Shown here: positions 6,053 to 50,792 of the stretch, piece after piece | Layout of the letters: every line of letters begins with the position of its first letter | How positions within the stretch are numbered: the first letter of the stretch is position 1 | Source: a virus | Lineage: Duplodnaviria > Caudoviricetes | IMG/VR virus record: IMGVR_UViG_3300025892_000008 | DNA: 64,000 bases | Strand: one strand, 5' to 3' | The notes under the pieces: model-generated | What the model saw: only the letters and a program-made list of their open reading frames with translations | The model's database searches: none | Told to the model about the DNA's origin: nothing | Program-made: the position numbers and the translations under genes

Positions 6053-7223
6053 AACATTTTGCATATTGCCTTGGATACATCTGTATGCCAATCCTGACGG
6101 CACTGTTCTACCTTGTTGTGTAGGAGACTGGCAGCAATCTATGGGTAATGTTCAGAACACAAAATTAGAAGATGTCTTTAATAATGAAAAGTTTAAGCAG
6201 ATGCGTAAGAACATGTTGGCTGGAAAAAAATGTAGCCAATGTACTGCATGTTACCGCGATGAAGATTCAGGTAACAGTAGTTTTCGTAAGCACAGCAACG
6301 AGCAGTTTGAAAAATATATTGATGATGCAGTTTTAAACACTAATGATGATGGCAGTATGGACGATTTTAGGTTGCGATATTTAGATGTTAGATGGAGTAA
6401 TATTTGCAATTTTAAATGTAGATCTTGCGGTCCTTTGTATTCAAGTAGTTGGGCGCAAGAACACGGTAGCGAAAAAATCTTTACCTATGCAGGCGGAGTT
6501 AGCAATGATGAACTATACAAACAGTTTGAACCTCACTTTGACACTATAGAAGAATTTTACTTTGCAGGCGGCGAGCCATTACTTACAGATAAGCATTACG
6601 AAATATTAGAATATCTAATTGATCACGATCGAACAGATGTAAAGTTAAGATACAACACAAACATGAGTGTGTTAAAATATAAAGGAAAGAGTGTTTTAGA
6701 CTTATGGAAAAAATTTAGTAACGTTATGATTGGAGCGAGCCTAGATCATTATGGATCTAAGGCTGAATATATACGGCACGGGACAGATTGGCCTTTAGTT
6801 GAAAGTAATTTAAAATTAATTCGGAAGGAAACTCCACATGTAGAATTGCATACAAACACGGTAGTATCTATTTTTAATATAAAGACTTTACCTAAGTTTA
6901 TTCAGTATATTATTGATAATGATTTAGTCAGTACAAAAAATTATAACCCTAATTTTTATAATATAATGAATCCAGACTATTATAGTTTTAAAATAATCCC
7001 AGAAGAGGACAAGGTAGATATCATAAAATCCTTGGAAGAGTTTGCTACACAGCACGGTGGAAACATCAAATATGGAATGCAGGGTGTTATAAATGGATTA
7101 CGAACATCGATGTATTCTCCCAAACTTAAAACAAAGTTATCGGTAGAAACAAAACATTACGATCATCTGCGCAAAGAAAGCGTAGAAGAAACTTTTCCTG
7201 AAATACAAGGATGGATTCAATGA
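6036..7223 (+). CDS. radical SAM protein with N-terminal SPASM/twitch-like Cys cluster (start may be GTG 6042)
   Basis: CNFKCRSC, FAGGEP, and N-terminal FCILPW...PCC...CSQCTAC. Confidence 0.85.
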   Translation: MTVPSKTFCILPWIHLYANPDGTVLPCCVGDWQQSMGNVQNTKLEDVFNNEKFKQMRKNMLAGKKCSQCTACYRDEDSGNSSFRKHSNEQFEKYIDDAVLNTNDDGSMDDFRLRYLDVRWSNICNFKCRSCGPLYSSSWAQEHGSEKIFTYAGGVSNDELYKQFEPHFDTIEEFYFAGGEPLLTDKHYEILEYLIDHDRTDVKLRYNTNMSVLKYKGKSVLDLWKKFSNVMIGASLDHYGSKAEYIRHGTDWPLVESNLKLIRKETPHVELHTNTVVSIFNIKTLPKFIQYIIDNDLVSTKNYNPNFYNIMNPDYYSFKIIPEEDKVDIIKSLEEFATQHGGNIKYGMQGVINGLRTSMYSPKLKTKLSVETKHYDHLRKESVEETFPEIQGWIQ

Positions 7224-16885: not shown

Positions 16886-17081
16886 TATGTTTATTATACG
16901 CTTTCTTATTGGATTTGTCAACCTCTTTAGTAAGTGAAAAGGAGCCATCGAAATTGTCTGTCCAAACTAAATCGTCTCCAATATCCCATCCCATTTGGTT
17001 TAGTAACTCAGTGGGAATAGGAAGAACCAAATCCTTCGATTTCGGATCTTCCTTTAATTTGATTTTTTGGGTACTAGTCAC
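16869..17081 (-). CDS. AbrB/MazE/SpoVT-like swapped-hairpin protein
   Basis: DLVLPIPTELLNQMGWDIGDDLVW...DGSFSL; probable GTG start at 17081. Confidence 0.55.
   Translation of the reverse strand: MTSTQKIKLKEDPKSKDLVLPIPTELLNQMGWDIGDDLVWTDNFDGSFSLTKEVDKSNKKAYNKHNDNSN
16893..16921 (-). promoter_or_regulatory. sigma70-type promoter for queE
   Basis: TTGACA-N17-TATAAT. Confidence 0.8.
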
Positions 17082-17283
17082 CAAAATGCTTGTCCAGCAT
17101 TTCGACTCTATCATGTGCAGTTGCCATTTTATCTAACTCTTTTTGGATAGTTTCGATAATATCGCTATGCTCACCAATTCCTACAACCTGTTGCATGTAT
17201 ACTTCAATATTGGCTTTATGCAGATCAATTTCTGCCTCAGCATGCTTCCTTGCTGCATTGATTAATGTTTGTTTCAATGTCAT
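17074..17283 (-). CDS. hypothetical helical protein
   Basis: 69 aa ORF with AAGG SD. Confidence 0.7.
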   Translation of the reverse strand: MTLKQTLINAARKHAEAEIDLHKANIEVYMQQVVGIGEHSDIIETIQKELDKMATAHDRVEMLDKHFGD

Positions 17284-26106: not shown

Positions 26107-28770
26107 TTACTCAAAATCAAATAAACTGTTAAAGTTATTATCATTACGTGTTTGACTTATGTCCCATTCCAAAACGCCAATTAAGTTTTTAAGTTTTTCA
26201 TCGATAACTGTGTTTTCCATAGTAGCATCATCGAATGGTAACTCTTTGAACCAATCCGGAAGTCTTAGTTCGTCAACCGGATATGCTACACTGGTGTAAG
26301 CCATTGGATTATCTTTAACCTTACATACAATAACTTTTGCACCATCTGTTATGTTTACTGAGTACTTGTCGCCGTTCATACGTTTAAGTGTATTCCAATT
26401 GATACTTGCTCTTACGTGTCCAGGCATATTCACCTTACCTGCTTTCTTTTCCTTTGCTCCATACTCTGTAATCTTATTTGCACGCTTAGGAGAACCTTTC
26501 TCCCAACCTGGACGTGACTTAAACTCTGTTCTAAATTCAGTAATGTAGTCTAGTACATCTTCTTTGTCTTTACCTGCTAGTACCATTTCTAATACATTAC
26601 TCAAAAAGTCTTGAATAACAACAGGAGTATCAGAACGTTTCAAGTCTAAGCCCATTGCTTTAATCTTGCCTGCCTTGCCTTCTGTATCTGTTCTAAATCC
26701 TTCAATGTCATAGTATAACACTGCATAACGTTTCTTTGTAATAAACAGACCTTTACTTGCAACAATCTCTCTAGCAGCCGCAATAACTTCGGAACGTTTT
26801 TTAGGACAATGAAATGCTTGGCTCATAAACTTAGGAAATGTTGCATTAGCATTTTCGCCGATTGTATCATATAGTTCTATAACGCTGTCTTTTGTCCACG
26901 GAATACTACCTGCTTCAATATCTTTTTTCAGTGTGCTATACGCACTGAAGTATGTAGAGTCAGTGTCACCATAAACAATTGCTTTGCCTGTATGATCATA
27001 TTCGCCTGTTACTATCTCATTGATCTTAGCAGCCATATGTTTTGTGATACTTCTTCCTGTAAGTGTAACACTTTGACCGATCCTATTATCGAAAAACCTA
27101 CAACCAGGATTAAGAATAGCGCCATACAAACTGTTAAGTAGAATTTTCTTAACCAACTGTCGCTTTGCCCAGTATTCTTCTTCAATTTTGTTTCCTGCAT
27201 TTTGACTTTCTTTCTGTTTAGCCTGCATTTCTTTACGTTCTTTGTACCAACGTGCAAGTAGTCCAGGAATAATACCTTCTTTTTCGTATGTAAAGATTGT
27301 ACCATTAGCACTTAGCATCCAAGGTTGATTGCTTTCGTAGATTAAATCATATATCTGTGCGGCACTAAGTTTGTCATTGTCGCCATTTTCCCAGTCGACA
27401 GTAATCTCTCTGCTAATCTCTTTGTCCATTACAGAACTATATTCAACACTACCAAACATACCTTCCCATGCACTTGCAAATGATTTGCCCTTTGCCATCT
27501 GTCCATCGATATGTGCTTTTGTTCCTTCTTGACGTAGTTGTCCGACTACAGTCTCAGGACCCATATTCAATGCTCTAATAACAGACGGATACAGTGAATT
27601 CAAGTCAACACTGCCAATCCATTCATGAATACCTTTTTTAGGATAAGCAACATAAGCACCTGCCGCAGGCTCACTGCCTGGCTCACGTTTTACTCTGTTC
27701 GGAACAATCATTCCACGTCTGTGTGCTTCGTTGATAATACCTTGTTCTGTAACTGCAACAGCACCCATTGTTGTTTGTATAAGAACTGTGTTTTCATGTG
27801 CAATAGTATTTGCAAGATCGATAAACTTTAGTTTCTTGTCTAGTTTGTCAAGTAGTGCAGTATCTTGTCTATTGTATTCGATGAATGTTCTAAAGTCGTT
27901 GTTGTATAGTGCATCAAGACTACCTTCATAAACAGTTTTCTTTTCACCTACTTCTAGTTCACCAATAGCATCTAGTCTGTATGTATGGCGTTCTTCATAG
28001 TTGTACTTACGATATAGTTCTAAACTATCTACGTGTACACGACCAATTAGATCATATGTTTGTGATTCCTTACCAAACTTTTCATATATTCTTTTCTTAG
28101 GCTTTTGATCCCACAAGCACAAGCGTCTAGTATCATCTGCGCTTAATACTTTAATGATACGGTTAACAGTGTAAGGCATATCATAACCTTCACTGTTCCA
28201 ACCACTTAGTACATCAGCATCTTGAATAAGATCTAAAAAAGCATCAAGCATATCTGCTTCATTGTCATACAGTATTGTATTTGGAATACCTTCAATTGCT
28301 TTTTGTGCTTCTGCCATTGAAAGTGTCTTAGGAGGAATAGCCAAACAAATAAGTTCATCTAGCCACTGTAAATGCACAGCAATTGATGTAATAGGCATAA
28401 ACGCATCTTCTGGACTTGCGTACCCACGCTCAGGATCAAAGTCAACCTCGATATCCCAAAACGCTACATTTAGTTTAGGAGCATCAACGTTTAAATAGTT
28501 GTCTTCTAAACAGCGATAAATTGGATTTATATCGCTTTCATATAATTTATGATTAGAATGAATTGCAAGTTCCTTGCGCAATTCCTTAATGTTTTTTGCA
28601 GTTACACGCTGTAAAGGATCACCGTAAATAGATTGATGTTTGCCTCTTGGGTCTTTATAATAAAATACGTGTCTTGGGGAATATTCTGTAAAATGTCTTT
28701 TATTGTTTTTTCTTTCTACTACTCGAATAGTATCTTCACTTCGATCATAGAATGCATCTACGTAACTCAT
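26107..28770 (-). CDS. family B DNA polymerase (T4 gp43-like)
   Basis: Exonuclease motifs DIEVD, GWNSEGYD and YNRQD; polymerase motifs DLNSLYPS, KILLNSLYG and YGDTDS; ATG 28770 with AGGAG SD. Confidence 0.95.
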   Translation of the reverse strand: MSYVDAFYDRSEDTIRVVERKNNKRHFTEYSPRHVFYYKDPRGKHQSIYGDPLQRVTAKNIKELRKELAIHSNHKLYESDINPIYRCLEDNYLNVDAPKLNVAFWDIEVDFDPERGYASPEDAFMPITSIAVHLQWLDELICLAIPPKTLSMAEAQKAIEGIPNTILYDNEADMLDAFLDLIQDADVLSGWNSEGYDMPYTVNRIIKVLSADDTRRLCLWDQKPKKRIYEKFGKESQTYDLIGRVHVDSLELYRKYNYEERHTYRLDAIGELEVGEKKTVYEGSLDALYNNDFRTFIEYNRQDTALLDKLDKKLKFIDLANTIAHENTVLIQTTMGAVAVTEQGIINEAHRRGMIVPNRVKREPGSEPAAGAYVAYPKKGIHEWIGSVDLNSLYPSVIRALNMGPETVVGQLRQEGTKAHIDGQMAKGKSFASAWEGMFGSVEYSSVMDKEISREITVDWENGDNDKLSAAQIYDLIYESNQPWMLSANGTIFTYEKEGIIPGLLARWYKERKEMQAKQKESQNAGNKIEEEYWAKRQLVKKILLNSLYGAILNPGCRFFDNRIGQSVTLTGRSITKHMAAKINEIVTGEYDHTGKAIVYGDTDSTYFSAYSTLKKDIEAGSIPWTKDSVIELYDTIGENANATFPKFMSQAFHCPKKRSEVIAAAREIVASKGLFITKKRYAVLYYDIEGFRTDTEGKAGKIKAMGLDLKRSDTPVVIQDFLSNVLEMVLAGKDKEDVLDYITEFRTEFKSRPGWEKGSPKRANKITEYGAKEKKAGKVNMPGHVRASINWNTLKRMNGDKYSVNITDGAKVIVCKVKDNPMAYTSVAYPVDELRLPDWFKELPFDDATMENTVIDEKLKNLIGVLEWDISQTRNDNNFNSLFDFE

Positions 28771-28783
28771 TTTTTCTCCTATA

Positions 28784-28829
28784 TGCAATTTCAGGCTTGC
28801 AAATACCAATGTGTCGCTTAATGGCCGAC
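28784..28829 (-). promoter_or_regulatory. two hairpins immediately upstream of the polB SD (candidate translational operator)
   Basis: UGCAA/UUGCA stem at 28784-28801 and GUCG/CGAC stem at 28813-28829. Confidence 0.4.
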
Positions 28830-32303: not shown

Positions 32304-33560
32304 CTATTTCTTTTTACCTGACTTCATATTAGCACACCAGTGATACATTTTAGCCTTCTCACCGCTTGCGTTTTTAGCCTTCTTACGCAACGATGTTACA
32401 CTACCATTGCAACTTGCACCTGATTTTTTTACTCTTCCGGGTCTACTTTTACCCTTCTTTTTACCGTCAGCAAAGTTTTCTTCTATATGTTCTCTTACTA
32501 GATGTTGAAAATTTTCTTCTATTTCTGCTTTTAATTTTTTGGCAGTTCTTTCAAACTTATGATCTTTATGTTTGAACCCTATGCCTCCGGCACTTTCCCA
32601 CGCTGCAATGTTAACACCATAATCGTCTATAAGGATATTAGGTGTGCCGTCGGGGTTAGTTGCATACTTCGCCTTATCCTTAGTTATGATGACTTCAGTT
32701 GGTGGAAAGAAGTCTAGGTTCTTTTCAATCCACTCGCGTTTATGCGGTTCTGAGTTAGGGTCATTTGCCAGTGGAGAACTTAGAATCTTGTAGTCACCTT
32801 TAACTTGTTTAATAATACCAAGTAGGTTTTTTGCATTTGCTGTTAGAGGAATGTTTAACCAAAATTCATCCTCATCTCTAATTTTTTTAAGTGCTGGTTC
32901 AATTTCATCTTTACCTAGTTCGCGCCAGTCCTTGCCAACCAACTTCTTCCACTCGCCAAAGAAGTCTGCTAGGACACCGTCCATGTCTACATAAATTTCT
33001 GATTTAGGGTTAAGCCCTTGAAACATATCTTCATATGTTTTCTTTTTCTTTTTCTTGGGGAATAATTTCTTAACGTTCATATACTCGCCACCTACGGGAA
33101 CGTCTGCGGTAGCATTTTGTTTTGTTACAATACCAACACCTGCTGCTTCTTCACCGTGATACTCTTGCTTGTGTTGTTCGCTTTCATCTGGAACTTCGTC
33201 TGTAAATGTTACAAATTTCTCCGGAACAACTACTGCTTCCATACTATCTACTTTTGCTATTCTTGCAGCAAAGTATCTATGATGTCCGTCCAGTATAAGA
33301 TACTTGCCGTCTTTTGGTGTAACTATAATTGGTTTTATTTCTTCGCCTGCTTTGATTTTATCCGCAAACTTCTTCATATTGTCTGCAGATTTTTTACCCT
33401 TCATTTTATCTGCTGGCTCAAATGGTTCCAGTTTATCAAAGTCTATTTGTTGTGAAGATTTTGAATTCCAGTATTTGTCATCTAGTGTAGCACCCTGATA
33501 GGAAGGATCCGTGTATACGGTTATTTCTTTTTCTTCTATAAGGAACTGGTGCGCTCTCAT
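32304..33560 (-). CDS. fusion of a ParB/Srx-like domain, a HAD 5'-nucleotidase-like domain and a basic Cys-containing tail
   Basis: PIIV...ILDGHHRYFAA; YVDMDGVLADF...ILIDDYGVN; starts MRAHQFLIE. Confidence 0.8.
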   Translation of the reverse strand: MRAHQFLIEEKEITVYTDPSYQGATLDDKYWNSKSSQQIDFDKLEPFEPADKMKGKKSADNMKKFADKIKAGEEIKPIIVTPKDGKYLILDGHHRYFAARIAKVDSMEAVVVPEKFVTFTDEVPDESEQHKQEYHGEEAAGVGIVTKQNATADVPVGGEYMNVKKLFPKKKKKKTYEDMFQGLNPKSEIYVDMDGVLADFFGEWKKLVGKDWRELGKDEIEPALKKIRDEDEFWLNIPLTANAKNLLGIIKQVKGDYKILSSPLANDPNSEPHKREWIEKNLDFFPPTEVIITKDKAKYATNPDGTPNILIDDYGVNIAAWESAGGIGFKHKDHKFERTAKKLKAEIEENFQHLVREHIEENFADGKKKGKSRPGRVKKSGASCNGSVTSLRKKAKNASGEKAKMYHWCANMKSGKKK

Positions 33561-37428: not shown

Positions 37429-38106
37429 TTATCGGTTTAATATATATTTGAAAACCTTGCCTATTAAGTTAGGTGCTCGTAATTGTAACATTAATAATGT
37501 ATTATCATCCGCTACTTGGATGTATCTTCTATCGTAATTTTCACTTGTAACAACTAACCATCTATAAACACTTTCAGTAAATGTAACGTTAGGAACCTGT
37601 TTAGACAACCAGTCAGCCACACTTTTTCTTGAACTAGCATCTAGTTTATGCGGGTGTAAGTATACTCGGTATTGATATTTGTTATAAGGTAACTCATTAA
37701 CATAAATTTTCTTATTACTATTCAAGATAGTGTTTTCTGTACCTTGTTTAGGTTGGGCTCTATACTTTACATATTCTGTAAATTCTTTACCTAATTGATC
37801 ATATAGATTAAAATTATTAGTGTATAAGTCAATATAATTACCTTCTAATCTTTTACCAAAGGATTTACTATCAAATGCATTTAACATCAAGCAAAGTTTT
37901 ATCCAACTTTCGTGATTTTCAGTTACATCTTCCACAACATCTTTACGCCAAGGTTCTTGATCTTTAAATCCATTCTGACATATATCTAACAGTTGAGAAA
38001 AATTATACCAGCGTAATGCGCTTGCACCCGGCATTCTCAGAGTAATTTTATAAATGTATTTGTTATAAAATTTCTTTTTAGTTGTCTTGGCTGTCGGCAG
38101 TTTCAT
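37429..38106 (-). CDS. hypothetical protein
   Basis: 225 aa ORF. Confidence 0.7.
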   Translation of the reverse strand: MKLPTAKTTKKKFYNKYIYKITLRMPGASALRWYNFSQLLDICQNGFKDQEPWRKDVVEDVTENHESWIKLCLMLNAFDSKSFGKRLEGNYIDLYTNNFNLYDQLGKEFTEYVKYRAQPKQGTENTILNSNKKIYVNELPYNKYQYRVYLHPHKLDASSRKSVADWLSKQVPNVTFTESVYRWLVVTSENYDRRYIQVADDNTLLMLQLRAPNLIGKVFKYILNR

Positions 38107-40417
38107 TTTCAGGCTTCTTTGCTGCTGCTTTTGCTGCTTTACGTTCTGCTTTAGTTAAGATTTTAGGAGCAGGAGCAAATGCAAACACGGGTTTATCATT
38201 GTCAATTGTTACATTAACTATTCCGCCATCTACTAATTCACCAAATAAAACTTGCTTACTGAGTGGTGTTTTAATTTCTGCATCTATCAATCTACCTAAC
38301 GGCCTAGCACCCATTTTCTTACTATACCCTTTTCCTGCTAACCATGAAATAGTTTCTTCATTTAGTTTGATAGTAATGTTTTTATCTTTTACTTGACCAT
38401 TAAGTTCTTTAATAAATTTTAAAACAATTTCTTTTACAACAGATTTTGATAACTTGCCAAACTTAACAGTAGCATCTAGTCTATTTCTAAACTCTGGAGC
38501 AAAAAAGTTTTTAACTGCTTTTTCATCTTCATCAAATCTTTCTAGGTCATCAAATCCAATAGTATTATTTTCGTTATCAGCAGCACCTAAGTTACTAGTC
38601 ATAATGAGTATACTATTTCTACCATCTGCTTGTTTACCATTTGATCCTGTTACAAAACCATTATCCATAAACTGTAACAAAATATTAGACACATCTTGAT
38701 GTGCTTTTTCTATTTCGTCAAGTAGTAATATAGCATTAGGTGTTTCTTGTAATTTAGTAATCAACTGTCCTGCATTTTCATCAAAGCCTACATATCCTGG
38801 AGGCGCACCAATTAATCTTGCAACACTATGCTTCTCTTGATACTCACTCATATCGAATCGTATCAATGACATGCCCATCTTTTCTGCAAGTTGTTTTGCT
38901 GTTTCTGTTTTACCACAGCCTGTAGGACCTAAGAATAAAAAACTACCAATAGGCTTATCAGGGGACTTTAGTCCTGCTTGTGCAACAAAAATTTTATCAA
39001 GTAATTTATCTACTGCATCATCTTGACCAAAAATACTTTTCTTCATAGCCGGTTCAAGATTATGTAAATTTTTACTTTCTTTCTGTGCTACTGTTTCTAA
39101 AGGCATTTTAATCATTTTAGATAATTCATAAGTAACTTGTTCTACATCAACTACTTGTGTAATACCTTCTTCAACAGGATCATCGTTTAGTTTATAACGT
39201 GCAGAAGCACAGTCAATAATATCGATGGCTTTATCAGGAAGTTTTTTATCTGATATGTATTTTATAGATAATTTTACAGCCTGTTCAATTGCTTCAGATG
39301 TAATATTAACATTATGATGTTGCTCATAGTATTTTTTCAAACCTTTAAGTATTTTAATTGTTACTTCTGCTGTAGGCTCGTCAACTGTTACACGTTGGAA
39401 TCTACGCATTAATGCACGATCCTTTTCAAAGTACTTGCGATACTCTTCCCAAGTAGTTGAAGCAATAACTTTCATACCACCTTTACTTAATGCTGGCTTT
39501 AACATATTTGCTAAATCATTTGAACTTTGACTTGCTGTACCTGCGCCTGACATCATATGTGCTTCATCTATGAATAAGATAATTTTACCTTTTCTTTCTA
39601 GAGCACCTAAGACTGCTTTAATTCTTTCTTCAAAATCACCTCTGTATTTAGAGCCAGCAACTAATGATCCTATATCTAAATTATATACTGTATGATCTTG
39701 TATAAATTTAGGTACTTTCTTTTCGTGTATCTTACGTGCTAGTCCTTCTGCAATAGCAGTTTTACCAACACCTGGATCTCCTACCATTAATACATTTGAC
39801 TTAGTTCTACGTGCTAATACAAGTTCAATATCTTCTAACTCGGGATCTCTTCCAATTACAGGATCAATTGTTTTTTGTTTAGCCTTCAATGATAGGTTAT
39901 CACAAAATTGATTTATTATTTTATCTAATTGATCATTTGTAAGGGGTCCTGACCCGCTTTCGTTTTCAAAAAATTCATCTTCTTCAATATAATGTTTTTG
40001 AAAGTGCTGAACAAATTTTTCTTTTATAATCCCGCCTTTTGTTAAGAAGTAAAAAGCAAAACTATTTTTTTCGGATAGTACACTAACTATAACATCAGCA
40101 ATTTCCATTTGGTTTCTACCGCTGAATAATACTTGTGTAAAGCATCTATTCAGTACACGTTCTACACTGTTAGTTTTCCTAGGTAGTGTGTTATCATTAG
40201 ATTCGATATCTTTTAAATTGTTTTTCAAGTAATGATCAAGATTAGATTTTATATAATCAACATCAGCACCGTATTCCTTCAGACCTGCTGATGACTCTTT
40301 ATCGGCAACAATTGCAAAAATAAGATGTTCTAATGTAATTAATCTATGTTTGTAGGATTTGGTTATTTCTACAGAACTATCGAAAATCTTTTGTAATTGT
40401 TTACTTGGCTCAATCAT
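38078..40417 (-). CDS. clpA: ClpA-type AAA+ unfoldase
   Basis: Clp N-domain (ITLEHL); GDPGVGKT/FIDEAH; GPTGCGKT/LLDEIEK; IGF loop; MGARPL; no ClpB middle domain. Confidence 0.92.
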   Translation of the reverse strand: MIEPSKQLQKIFDSSVEITKSYKHRLITLEHLIFAIVADKESSAGLKEYGADVDYIKSNLDHYLKNNLKDIESNDNTLPRKTNSVERVLNRCFTQVLFSGRNQMEIADVIVSVLSEKNSFAFYFLTKGGIIKEKFVQHFQKHYIEEDEFFENESGSGPLTNDQLDKIINQFCDNLSLKAKQKTIDPVIGRDPELEDIELVLARRTKSNVLMVGDPGVGKTAIAEGLARKIHEKKVPKFIQDHTVYNLDIGSLVAGSKYRGDFEERIKAVLGALERKGKIILFIDEAHMMSGAGTASQSSNDLANMLKPALSKGGMKVIASTTWEEYRKYFEKDRALMRRFQRVTVDEPTAEVTIKILKGLKKYYEQHHNVNITSEAIEQAVKLSIKYISDKKLPDKAIDIIDCASARYKLNDDPVEEGITQVVDVEQVTYELSKMIKMPLETVAQKESKNLHNLEPAMKKSIFGQDDAVDKLLDKIFVAQAGLKSPDKPIGSFLFLGPTGCGKTETAKQLAEKMGMSLIRFDMSEYQEKHSVARLIGAPPGYVGFDENAGQLITKLQETPNAILLLDEIEKAHQDVSNILLQFMDNGFVTGSNGKQADGRNSILIMTSNLGAADNENNTIGFDDLERFDEDEKAVKNFFAPEFRNRLDATVKFGKLSKSVVKEIVLKFIKELNGQVKDKNITIKLNEETISWLAGKGYSKKMGARPLGRLIDAEIKTPLSKQVLFGELVDGGIVNVTIDNDKPVFAFAPAPKILTKAERKAAKAAAKKPENETADSQDN

Positions 40418-46692: not shown

Positions 46693-46938
46693 TTATATTA
46701 ACCAGTTCCATATTGCTCGTAACCCTAATAACAAGTACATTCCTTCCATTAATGCTCTAGGAATATCTTTATCTTTAATACCAAAGTAAATCCACATTGT
46801 ACAACTTACACAGGCAACTGCCCAGCCTATCCATTGTGTTTCTGTATTAGCATTTGAAAGAATAAAAGCAGCAATAATTGCTAGTATAAAGCCTATCCAT
46901 CTAGGCCCATCGATGTTGTGATAGTATCTAATTTTCAT
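46693..46938 (-). CDS. small membrane protein
   Basis: About three hydrophobic segments. Confidence 0.65.
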
Positions 46939-47849
46939 AATCTTCCTAACTTAATTAATACTGCTGCTAGATTAATTTCCGGATCAGCAACTAATGTATG
47001 ATCTACTAATCCTTGTTTAATTACTAGTACCGCAGTGTCTTGTTTTGCTTCATCACCAAAGATTGAAATGTTATCATATAGCCAACGATATACTTCTTCC
47101 ATTTCTTCAGCACGTAGTTTGCCACAAAGTAATTGTCTTGCTTCACTAATCTTGCCAGCCTTAAATAGTTCAACCATATCAAACTTCCAGTCTGCTTCAC
47201 CTTCATCACCTTTACTAGGAGCATGCAGTTTAGCATCTGTAACGTTTTGTTGCACCATGTTAATACATTTACGTAAGTCTGGATACGTAGCCTTTACATA
47301 AAGATCTAATGTTTCTAAATCAATATCAACTTGTTCTTCAACTAGTATTGTTGCAACACGAGCAGTAAACTCTGTTTGATCAATACGCTCCATATGATAG
47401 CCTTGACACCTACTGTGAATAGCAGGAATAATTCTATTAGGATAATTGCAAGTTAAAATAAATCTTGATGTCATATGATACTCTTCCATAACACCACGCA
47501 ATGCTGCCTGTGCGTTCGGCGACAAGTAATCAGCCTCATCTAATAATACAACCTTAAATGGACCAAATGGAATCATTTGCACAAAGTTTGTAATCTTATT
47601 TCTTACTTCATCTACACTGTTTGTTCTACTAGCATTAATTTCTAGTACATCAAACTCTTCAATTCCAAGTTCATTTATAAGAATCTTTGCCATAGTAGTT
47701 TTACCGATACCGGCTGCACCACTAAACAATAAATGAGGAATACTTTTTTCTTTTACCCAAAGTTTTGCTTGTTTGCGTTGATGTTCATCTCTAAAAACAT
47801 AACCATCTAAATTCTTAGGACGATATTTTTCTACCCATAGTTCTTTCAT
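46935..47849 (-). CDS. clamp loader AAA+ subunit (RFC/gp44-like)
   Basis: LWVEKYRP, GAAGIGKT, NAS, DEAD, LTCN and IHSRC motifs. Confidence 0.9.
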   Translation of the reverse strand: MKELWVEKYRPKNLDGYVFRDEHQRKQAKLWVKEKSIPHLLFSGAAGIGKTTMAKILINELGIEEFDVLEINASRTNSVDEVRNKITNFVQMIPFGPFKVVLLDEADYLSPNAQAALRGVMEEYHMTSRFILTCNYPNRIIPAIHSRCQGYHMERIDQTEFTARVATILVEEQVDIDLETLDLYVKATYPDLRKCINMVQQNVTDAKLHAPSKGDEGEADWKFDMVELFKAGKISEARQLLCGKLRAEEMEEVYRWLYDNISIFGDEAKQDTAVLVIKQGLVDHTLVADPEINLAAVLIKLGRL

Positions 47850-49465: not shown

Positions 49466-49858
49466 TTATTCGGCGCCAAACATACCGGCGTCAAATGTTG
49501 CTTTAGATCCGTCTGAATACTCTTGACCGAAGTACGCAAGGTCCTTGGGCTCTTCATCTTGCCATGCAAGTATTGAGTCCAACTCAATTTTTTGAATCTC
49601 TACTTCTTCGCCGTGTTCGTCTGTAACTTTAAGTTTACGTGTCCAACGACCGTGTGCGATTAAAATCCAATCGCCTACATCATACGGATCTTTATTTTCG
49701 TGTCCTTTAGAATATACTTGTGCCCAACGAGGTTTTACACCATGTGCCTTAGCGTCATCGGATCCAATAATGATTCCGCCTGCTGTCGTTGTTTCACCAA
49801 AGTGCATTTTATGCACTAATACATCACTACGGATAGCAGTAATTTTACCTTTGATCAT
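49466..49858 (-). CDS. groES: GroES/Cpn10-like co-chaperonin
   Basis: DVLV...TTAGGIII...VGDWIL...ILA pattern. Confidence 0.8.
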   Translation of the reverse strand: MIKGKITAIRSDVLVHKMHFGETTTAGGIIIGSDDAKAHGVKPRWAQVYSKGHENKDPYDVGDWILIAHGRWTRKLKVTDEHGEEVEIQKIELDSILAWQDEEPKDLAYFGQEYSDGSKATFDAGMFGAE

Positions 49859-49872
49859 GTGCTATAGCCTTT

Positions 49873-50100
49873 CTATGATTTTTTAGATCTATCTACAACT
49901 TCTTCTTGAATTGCTCTAGGGTTTTTATCATAGTAATCTTTTAGAATTGCTTCTCTTGTTCTTACTACTTTTCCGCCCTTACCAATTTCATCACCGCGAG
50001 CATTTACTTTCATATTACCAACTGCTGGTAATGTTTCATTTTTAAGATTAAGTTTTTCCATATCAATCTCTTTGCCGCGCATACTTTTAATTGTTGCCAT
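49873..50100 (-). CDS. hypothetical protein
   Basis: 75 aa ORF with AAGGAG SD. Confidence 0.7.
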   Translation of the reverse strand: MATIKSMRGKEIDMEKLNLKNETLPAVGNMKVNARGDEIGKGGKVVRTREAILKDYYDKNPRAIQEEVVDRSKKS

Positions 50101-50110
50101 TTTAGTCTCC

Positions 50111-50566
50111 TTATTTAAAGAATTCGTTTAGTGGTATATTGTATTTAATCGGATCAATCTTATGGACCCCTAATATGTGAAGAACAAGACTTGAAACACT
50201 TGATCCTCTACCTACACCCCATACGATATCATTTTTTCTTAGTGTGTCTATTATATATTTTACCTGTTTTAGTAACATCGTAAGATTTCTATCTTCGAAT
50301 TCTTTCAGTTCAATCTTAGCTCTTTCTATATATTCGTCTGTTTTACACTGCATAATAACGAATTTTTCAATATCCATATCTTTATAACTGTCTGGCATAA
50401 ACCAATTATTTGTATTTAATTTAGATTTTGGCTTTGGATAGTCTAGGAATTCTGTTTCTATTCTTTCTAGATACAGACTAGCATCATCAATAACACAGTG
50501 TTCCAGTATTTCTGGCCCGTGTTTTTTAATACCTTGTATTACTTCTTTTATATTATTAGTCGACAT
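50111..50566 (-). CDS. miniature DnaE (Pol III alpha)-like fragment
   Basis: R...EL...WGVGRGSSVSSLVLHILGVHKIDPIKYNIPLNEFF parallels DnaE GPGRGSGAGSLVAY...DPL...LLFERF; it ends before the PDxDxD motif. Confidence 0.75.
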   Translation of the reverse strand: MSTNNIKEVIQGIKKHGPEILEHCVIDDASLYLERIETEFLDYPKPKSKLNTNNWFMPDSYKDMDIEKFVIMQCKTDEYIERAKIELKEFEDRNLTMLLKQVKYIIDTLRKNDIVWGVGRGSSVSSLVLHILGVHKIDPIKYNIPLNEFFK

Positions 50567-50792
50567 TTATAAGTTGATCCAAATCCTTATCTTCATCATT
50601 TGTTTTTACAGGTTGCATTGCTCTTCTGCGTAATTCATCTCTATATATTGTAACAAATGTTTGGAGTTGTGTCAACAGTTGTCCGTTGCCTAAACGTGCG
50701 GCTTGGGTATATTTTTTGCCCAATTCGGATATTTTCTGTGTTAATTCAGTTTCAGTAAGTTGTTTTGGGTCTTCTTGGAATGGGTGAAACAT
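50556..50792 (-). CDS. hypothetical helical protein
   Basis: 78 aa ORF coupled on both sides. Confidence 0.7.
   Translation of the reverse strand: MFHPFQEDPKQLTETELTQKISELGKKYTQAARLGNGQLLTQLQTFVTIYRDELRRRAMQPVKTNDEDKDLDQLINVD

Follow-up and report, generated by a model that had tools for sequence, protein, structure and literature searches.

A conserved 151-residue phage protein as the probable triphosphate-binding half of a split, minimal Pol III alpha with a distant partner gene

In cyanobacteria, DnaE is encoded as DnaE-N and DnaE-C by two distant genes, and intein pieces on the two products splice the halves into a full-length enzyme. A split minimal Pol III alpha has also been described, from sequence, in the group 2.2 jumbo phages, where a role in repair or gap filling was suggested and the pair was proposed as a model of the ancestral C-family enzyme (Iyer et al. 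2021, Viruses 13:63, PMC7824862). Our search of the literature returned no biochemical, genetic or expression data on this split mini Pol III alpha and no later paper. Here we analyzed a 64,000-nt stretch of DNA from a tailed-phage record (IMGVR_UViG_3300025892_000008), hereafter the window, which stems from an uncultured giant phage of marine type and in which a small ORF at 50111..50566 on the minus strand encodes what we call the N-unit, the putative NTP-binding half of such an enzyme. An earlier note on this DNA had supposed that similar small Pol III-like ORFs might already be on record in related jumbo phages, and the N-terminal unit of the system described by Iyer et al. (GAP32_323, PHROG 11127) is indeed of this kind: it corresponds to that part of the DnaE palm which the window ORF retains, stops at the equivalent position, and is a stand-alone gene far from the gene for its complementary C-unit; a GroES-like gene is its neighbor, and its genome also encodes a family B polymerase and a T4-type clamp loader. 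The window's N-unit differs in belonging to a marine subfamily of 151–165 aa with its own conserved N-terminal 50 residues, whereas the N-units of the cultured phages GAP32, PA5oct, RsoM2USA and SCTP-2 are 169–181 aa as annotated and match it only from about residue 35–55. The distance between the two genes, 5–116 kb in cultured phages, would be ~165–185 kb in the window's clade.

The N-unit ORF is intact, with an ATG start and a TAA stop enclosing 151 codons. Its sole Pfam match aligns positions 18–94 of the 260-position PF07733 (DNA_pol3_alpha) with residues 74–150 (E = 6e-13), and its best PHROG is phrog_11127 (171-position profile, E = 2.5e-40). When the single sequence was compared with solved structures by phmmer, residues 76–149 aligned without gaps to E. 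coli Pol III alpha 318–391, and the same residues aligned to M. tuberculosis DnaE1 333–405 and Taq 383–453, although a profile of the N-unit family found no match among PDB sequences. Of the Pol III alpha palm the protein represents no more than the first third (E. coli 318–391), comprising two long helices, the VWGVG strand, the GRGSS triphosphate loop, one helix and a ...NEFFK tail that ends 7–10 residues short of the PDxDxD strand with its catalytic aspartates. We take the latter to be D401 and D403 in E. coli Pol III alpha, 10 residues past position 391. The PF07733 and DnaE alignments agree with the earlier observation that the GRGS region and the following helix are kept and that the ORF stops just before PDxDxD. 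The catalytic aspartate triad in one polypeptide, by which a bacterial Pol III alpha is recognized, is absent from the N-unit, and Pfam detected no PHP domain, thumb, full fingers, clamp-binding motif or OB fold in it. An AlphaFold model of the single chain (pLDDT 86) is mostly helical, and Foldseek returned Pol III alpha chains as its top structural matches. Within the C-terminal half of this model the strand at residues 111–120 has the lowest confidence, which fits a strand folded without its sheet partners.

Two further motifs were considered and rejected. DMDIE (residues 63–67) was dropped as a permuted catalytic motif, as E67 varies and D65 is not invariant among 54 relatives. The C-terminal LNEFF was discarded as a clamp-binding tail because it is unlike the ...NSLFDFE tail of the phage's family B polymerase, and also because it is ordinary DnaE palm sequence lying inside the interface predicted below.

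The N-unit gene sits in a compact and recurrent neighborhood, all of it on the minus strand. Directly upstream lies a 78-aa helical ORF (phrog_15348, 50556..50792) whose last 11 nt, stop included, overlap the start of the N-unit gene; downstream, a 75-aa ORF (phrog_14844, 49873..50100) begins 10 nt past the N-unit stop and is preceded by GGAG, so that the start, stop and coupling of the gene are as intact as they had first appeared. A TAAATA late-promoter box 5 nt upstream of the N-unit ATG is absent; a TATAAAT overlaps the start codon instead. The upstream neighbor is conserved, with phrog_15348 also directly upstream of the N-unit in GAP32 and Vibrio phage 2.275.O, and is absent from that position in PA5oct, RsoM2USA and SCTP-2. 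The downstream neighbor phrog_14844 is likewise found directly downstream of the N-unit in GAP32, PA5oct, SCTP-2 and Vibrio 2.275.O. Next come a GroES/gp31-like co-chaperonin (49466..49858; PF00166 and phrog_931) and, 2.3 kb downstream of the N-unit, a clamp-loader large subunit of gp44/RFC-like type (46935..47849; PF00004 and PF13177), which we report as context and for which we claim no partnership. The order N-unit, small ORF, GroES-like gene, clamp loader is kept in GAP32, PA5oct, RsoM2USA and Vibrio 2.275.O, and the clamp loader lies 1–2.5 kb downstream of the N-unit in GAP32, SCTP-2 and RsoM2USA. Members of phrog_15348 and phrog_14844 and the GroES-like gene thus accompany the N-unit across very distant phages.

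The window also encodes a complete family B DNA polymerase of 900 aa (26107..28809, minus strand; PF00136 and PF03104), confirming that a full replicative polymerase coexists with the small ORF; this enzyme is the phage's main replicase, alongside the mini Pol III. Together with the RFC-like clamp loader, this polymerase gives the window genome the combination that marks the T4-like 'group 2.2'. Elsewhere in the window we observed a 779-aa ClpB/Hsp104-type double AAA+ protein (Clp_N, AAA, AAA_2 and ClpB_D2-small domains) at 38078-40417 on the minus strand, and a DnaJ-like gene was seen in relatives (L112); together with the GroES-like gene these suggest a phage-borne chaperone set. A 418-aa protein at 32304-33560, also on the minus strand, combines ParB N-terminal-like and 5'-deoxynucleotidase (NT5C) domains.

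The complementary part of the DnaE palm is encoded by a separate family of ~190 aa, the C-unit, which we reached through a Pol III finger-domain match to gene _210 of the Ralstonia phage RsoM2USA. This 193-aa protein starts MDIDIDL, carries KLDFL, ALIRPGK and FKRAHSISYA, and has 992 near-length relatives; the family begins exactly at (P)DIDID and contains KxDFL with the third aspartate as well as RPxK and KSH. Across 50 diverse C-units, D3, D5, D7, K66, D68, R135, P136 and K138 are invariant, and the finger remnants RPxK and KSH are invariant or nearly so. RPxK and KSH match DnaE motifs that contact the incoming dNTP and the template. The C-unit profile is collinear with Taq Pol III alpha 461–551, 607–720 and 801–823 and skips residues 552–606 and 721–800, in our reading the thumb and some of the fingers. 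The 192-aa C-unit of the marine relative G132 (L412:1483-2058, minus strand), which starts MPDIDIDF, has no Pfam match at E ≤ 0.01, whereas soil relatives reach the Pol III finger family.

The two units occur together. A tblastn search recovered 92 phage records for the N-unit and 96 for the C-unit, with almost matching host-genus tallies, and both units were present, 5–116 kb apart, in all six cultured genomes checked (GAP32, PA5oct, RsoM2USA, SCTP-2, Vibrio 2.275.O and the 141-kb Alishewanella Slicko01). No PHP domain was found in the three complete genomes searched for one (GAP32, PA5oct and RsoM2USA). Compared with bacterial DnaE (E. coli 2HNH, Taq 2HPI/3E0D, M. tuberculosis 5LEW), the pair has a homologous Pol-beta-like palm, in which the GS triphosphate loop and helix of the N-unit align residue by residue and the C-unit retains the three aspartates and the finger motifs. 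Unlike bacterial DnaE, the palm is cut between its first and second strands, the pair lacks PHP, thumb, clamp-binding, HhH and OB domains, and it amounts to ~340 aa rather than 1160. As in the cyanobacterial case, DnaE would be made from two distant genes; unlike the cyanobacterial halves, which are split elsewhere, these show no sign of protein splicing. The search for intein halves proposed at the outset came back negative, with no intein family matching the N-unit or the G132 C-unit, and the junctions of both are plain DnaE sequence: the N-unit ends FFK, the C-unit starts M(P)DIDID, and 7–8 linker residues of DnaE are missing between them.

We next folded the window's N-unit together with the G132 C-unit, each with its own family alignment. 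The complex scored an ipSAE of 0.90, with 0.00 for the best of three controls, against a mark reached by 58/80 solved complexes and by 2/110 mismatched pairs; this pass may derive from the likeness of the pair to solved single-chain DnaE, in which case it reports likeness and not binding. Separate runs shared at least 96% of contacts, and the partner was modeled with a pLDDT of at least 89. The predicted interface sets N-unit residues 112–126 (the VWGVG strand and GRGSS loop) against C-unit residues 2–9 (the DIDIDF strand), and the invariant W55/F56 and the C-terminal residues 148–151 of the N-unit also contact the C-unit in the model. As modeled, the interface rebuilds the DnaE palm sheet.

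Taken with these observations, we consider the N-unit to be one subunit of a heterodimeric, minimal C-family (DnaE-like) nucleotidyltransferase, with a probability of roughly 0.85. In the enzyme we propose, the N-unit would supply the support helices of the Pol-beta-like palm and its first beta-strand (VWGVG), and its GRGSS loop and following helix would hold the triphosphate of the incoming nucleotide. The C-unit, ~190 aa from a separate gene, would supply the next strand, (P)DIDIDF, with two catalytic aspartates, the KxDFL motif with the third aspartate and its lysine, and what is left of the fingers (RPxK and FKKSHAxAY). The two would assemble non-covalently into a ~340-aa heterodimer with a complete active site and no PHP, thumb, clamp-binding or OB domains. 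The product may be an active DNA polymerase of low processivity that operates alongside the family B enzyme, whether for repair, for gap filling or for some portion of replication; of these we adopt repair or gap filling as a default guess.

Whether such a heterodimer would carry out templated DNA synthesis or some other nucleotidyl transfer we put at about even odds. A templated polymerase is favored by the gene context and the retained finger motifs, although the loss of the thumb, the clamp-binding element and most finger elements implies weak, distributive activity at best. It is accordingly possible, and we advance it tentatively, that the units do assemble but form a minimal Pol-beta-fold nucleotidyltransferase for untemplated tailing, primer-like synthesis or nucleotide signaling. 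The parts of DnaE that hold the primer-template (the thumb and most of the fingers) are deleted, so that the pair may bind DNA too weakly to act as a true polymerase; it has no counterpart of the clamp-binding tail found on the family B polymerase; and the phage already possesses a complete replicase, clamp loader, primase and helicase. Against this, the RPxK and KSH remnants of the fingers have been kept at their near-complete invariance, and the C-unit gene lies inside a replisome gene cluster.

The window itself holds no C-unit by motif scans and hmmsearch --max in all six frames; a weak tblastn match at 17014-17196 was rejected as part of a coiled-coil ORF. The gene is likewise absent from the 10 kb past the window end and from relatives' contigs reaching ~52 kb before the window start, and it was found in 0/30 IMG/VR records with an N-unit of the full-length type, compared with 6/19 with the longer type. 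Loss of the partner from the subfamily was nevertheless rejected, as contigs anchored on the capsid gene place the C-unit far off, with one exception (G001, below). The anchor is a highly conserved 390-aa protein at about −52 kb, which is probably the major capsid protein. In G136 (209,836 bp) the N-unit, which shares 51% identity with that of the window along its entire length, lies at 11.4 kb, the capsid gene at ~116 kb and the C-unit at 178.4 kb, a separation of 167 kb between the two units; in G135 the N-unit is 101 kb from the capsid gene. In G132, G133, G134, G137 and G138 the C-unit lies past the capsid gene at a distance of 57–85 kb, on the flank that faces away from the window. The G132 contig aligns collinearly with the window's relatives (66–81% nucleotide identity), and its C-unit is located among genes for a UvsW-like helicase, a protein of 156 aa, a zinc-finger-like protein of 227 aa, a Toprim primase and a DnaB-like helicase. 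From the layout of these relatives, the partner in the window lineage would sit in a primase/helicase cluster outside the window, at the distance given above, and the window genome's own C-unit would be expected roughly 110–135 kb before the window start.

A pair of genes, encoding a ~155-aa protein and a ~227-aa C2H2-like zinc-finger protein, was observed directly upstream of the C-unit both in G132 (L412 2234-3371, minus strand) and in the soil phage RsoM2USA (_212 and _211). In RsoM2USA the order (L008) is N-unit, GroES-like gene, one further gene, clamp loader, the _212/_211 pair and C-unit, which may be close to the ancestral arrangement.

Some genomes yielded an N-unit only. G001 (IMGVR_UViG_3300046318_000439), at 202 kb with terminal repeats and rated complete, has an N-unit at 97656-98132 on the minus strand with its coupled upstream small ORF, the counterpart of the window's 78-aa ORF at 56% identity, and two profiles that recover remote C-units at E = 1e-52 found none in any of its frames. 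The record represents either a genuine orphan lineage or an assembly from which sequence is missing. In G112 (286 kb, 82% complete) the N-unit was found and the C-unit was not. Apparent N-only lineages such as G001, together with the placement of the two units in blocks ~170 kb apart (the GroES/clamp-loader block and the primase-helicase block), raise the speculative and rather unlikely idea that the split is functional and not accidental, with the N-unit either having a second role or contributing to an active enzyme only if two modules under separate control are expressed together; in both cases the phage would possess, next to its family B replicase, a second and unrelated polymerase.

G001 also bears on the three options that the earlier note had left side by side, namely one half of a split enzyme, a decoy for the host replisome and a repurposed nucleotide-binding module. 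The first is supported by the complementary ~190-aa family, its co-occurrence with the N-unit and the predicted docking; for the decoy and the stand-alone nucleotide-binding module no evidence was found, while G001 keeps both alive. We regard as improbable that the N-unit is an orphan which acts alone or with a host protein, either as a nucleotide-binding module or as a decoy or inhibitor of host Pol III. The missing C-unit of G001 and the lack of any C-unit within ~126 kb around the N-unit in the window's own lineage are what such an orphan would lead one to expect, but G136 and G132–G138 carry C-units at a consistent distant position, the residues W116, G117, G119–S123 and E148–K151 of the predicted interface are invariant, and strand 111–120 is of low confidence alone, as if its sheet partners were missing. 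A subunit of a two-gene enzyme remains our preferred reading of the N-unit.

The truncated form of the protein is itself conserved, in hundreds of 150–190-aa relatives. We found 904 near-length relatives in a large protein collection, the best 120 of which are 98–165 aa long, mostly 151–162 aa, with identities down to 54%. In a library clustered at 50% identity, 724 representatives matched the N-unit at E ≤ 1e-10, and among the best 150 of these (95–196 aa) nearly all share the query's end point; nearly all relatives listed stop at ...EFFK or a few residues beyond. Lengths stay within 151–165 aa across 59 relatives, and in 54 aligned relatives W116, G117, G119, R120, G121, S122, S123 and E148–K151 are invariant. 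Pairwise dN/dS against close relatives is 0.07–0.18 at dS of 0.1–0.9. The N-unit is thus under strong purifying selection with a conserved truncation, where a pseudogene had been expected to show variable truncation and dN/dS near 1. The ORF and the same neighbors also occur on many independent metagenome assemblies, up to 219,692 bp (ENA ERZ807141 NODE_16_length_219692, with the identical locus at 15.4 kb), and since the ORF is identical on many independent contigs it is not an assembly frameshift; no hidden full-length frame or Pol III-like frame elsewhere in the window was found, and a weak search returned no longer or fused relatives close to the N-unit. That the N-unit is a decaying remnant of a captured dnaE, or an artefact of assembly or frameshift masking a longer gene, would suit a domain fragment incapable of catalysis alone, but is already refuted on the terms set by the earlier note, by the selection, constant length and independent assemblies just described and, against a remnant, by the unrelated conserved ORF that occupies the DNA 3' of the gene 10 nt away.

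Reduced C-family polymerases also occur in phages in another form. G131 (IMGVR_UViG_3300006735_000364, a 19.6-kb contig) encodes an unsplit 563-aa DnaE without a PHP domain (L326:543-2234, minus strand; PHROG 11165-like). Like the pair considered here, it is a compact, PHP-less phage DnaE, and its N-unit-like segment matches at E = 1e-8; it falls outside the two-gene family and, in contrast to the pair, holds PF07733 in full (18–260) and a finger domain in one chain. The same contig carries a stand-alone 203-aa C-unit at 6608-7156 on the plus strand, and some phages therefore have two kinds of reduced C-family polymerase parts.

Judged by its sequence and that of its relatives, the window ORF appears to add a marine member to a kind of enzyme known since 2021, one whose partner gene is unusually remote. 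What the window contributes is a marine subfamily, evidence of strong selection, a predicted interface across the palm sheet, and halves that would lie ~170 kb apart. That distance makes the small ORF seem an orphan whenever one window is viewed by itself, and because the marine C-unit has no Pfam match, routine annotation leaves the C-unit hypothetical and the N-unit seemingly without a partner; both halves should be named in annotation as parts of one enzyme. Phages with N- and C-units form hundreds of sequence clusters from soil, freshwater, gut-associated and marine samples. Among known relatives of the bacterial replicative polymerase, the two-gene mini Pol III would be the smallest, and in these giant phages, which make up a very large group, it coexists with a family B replicase of archaeo-eukaryotic type.
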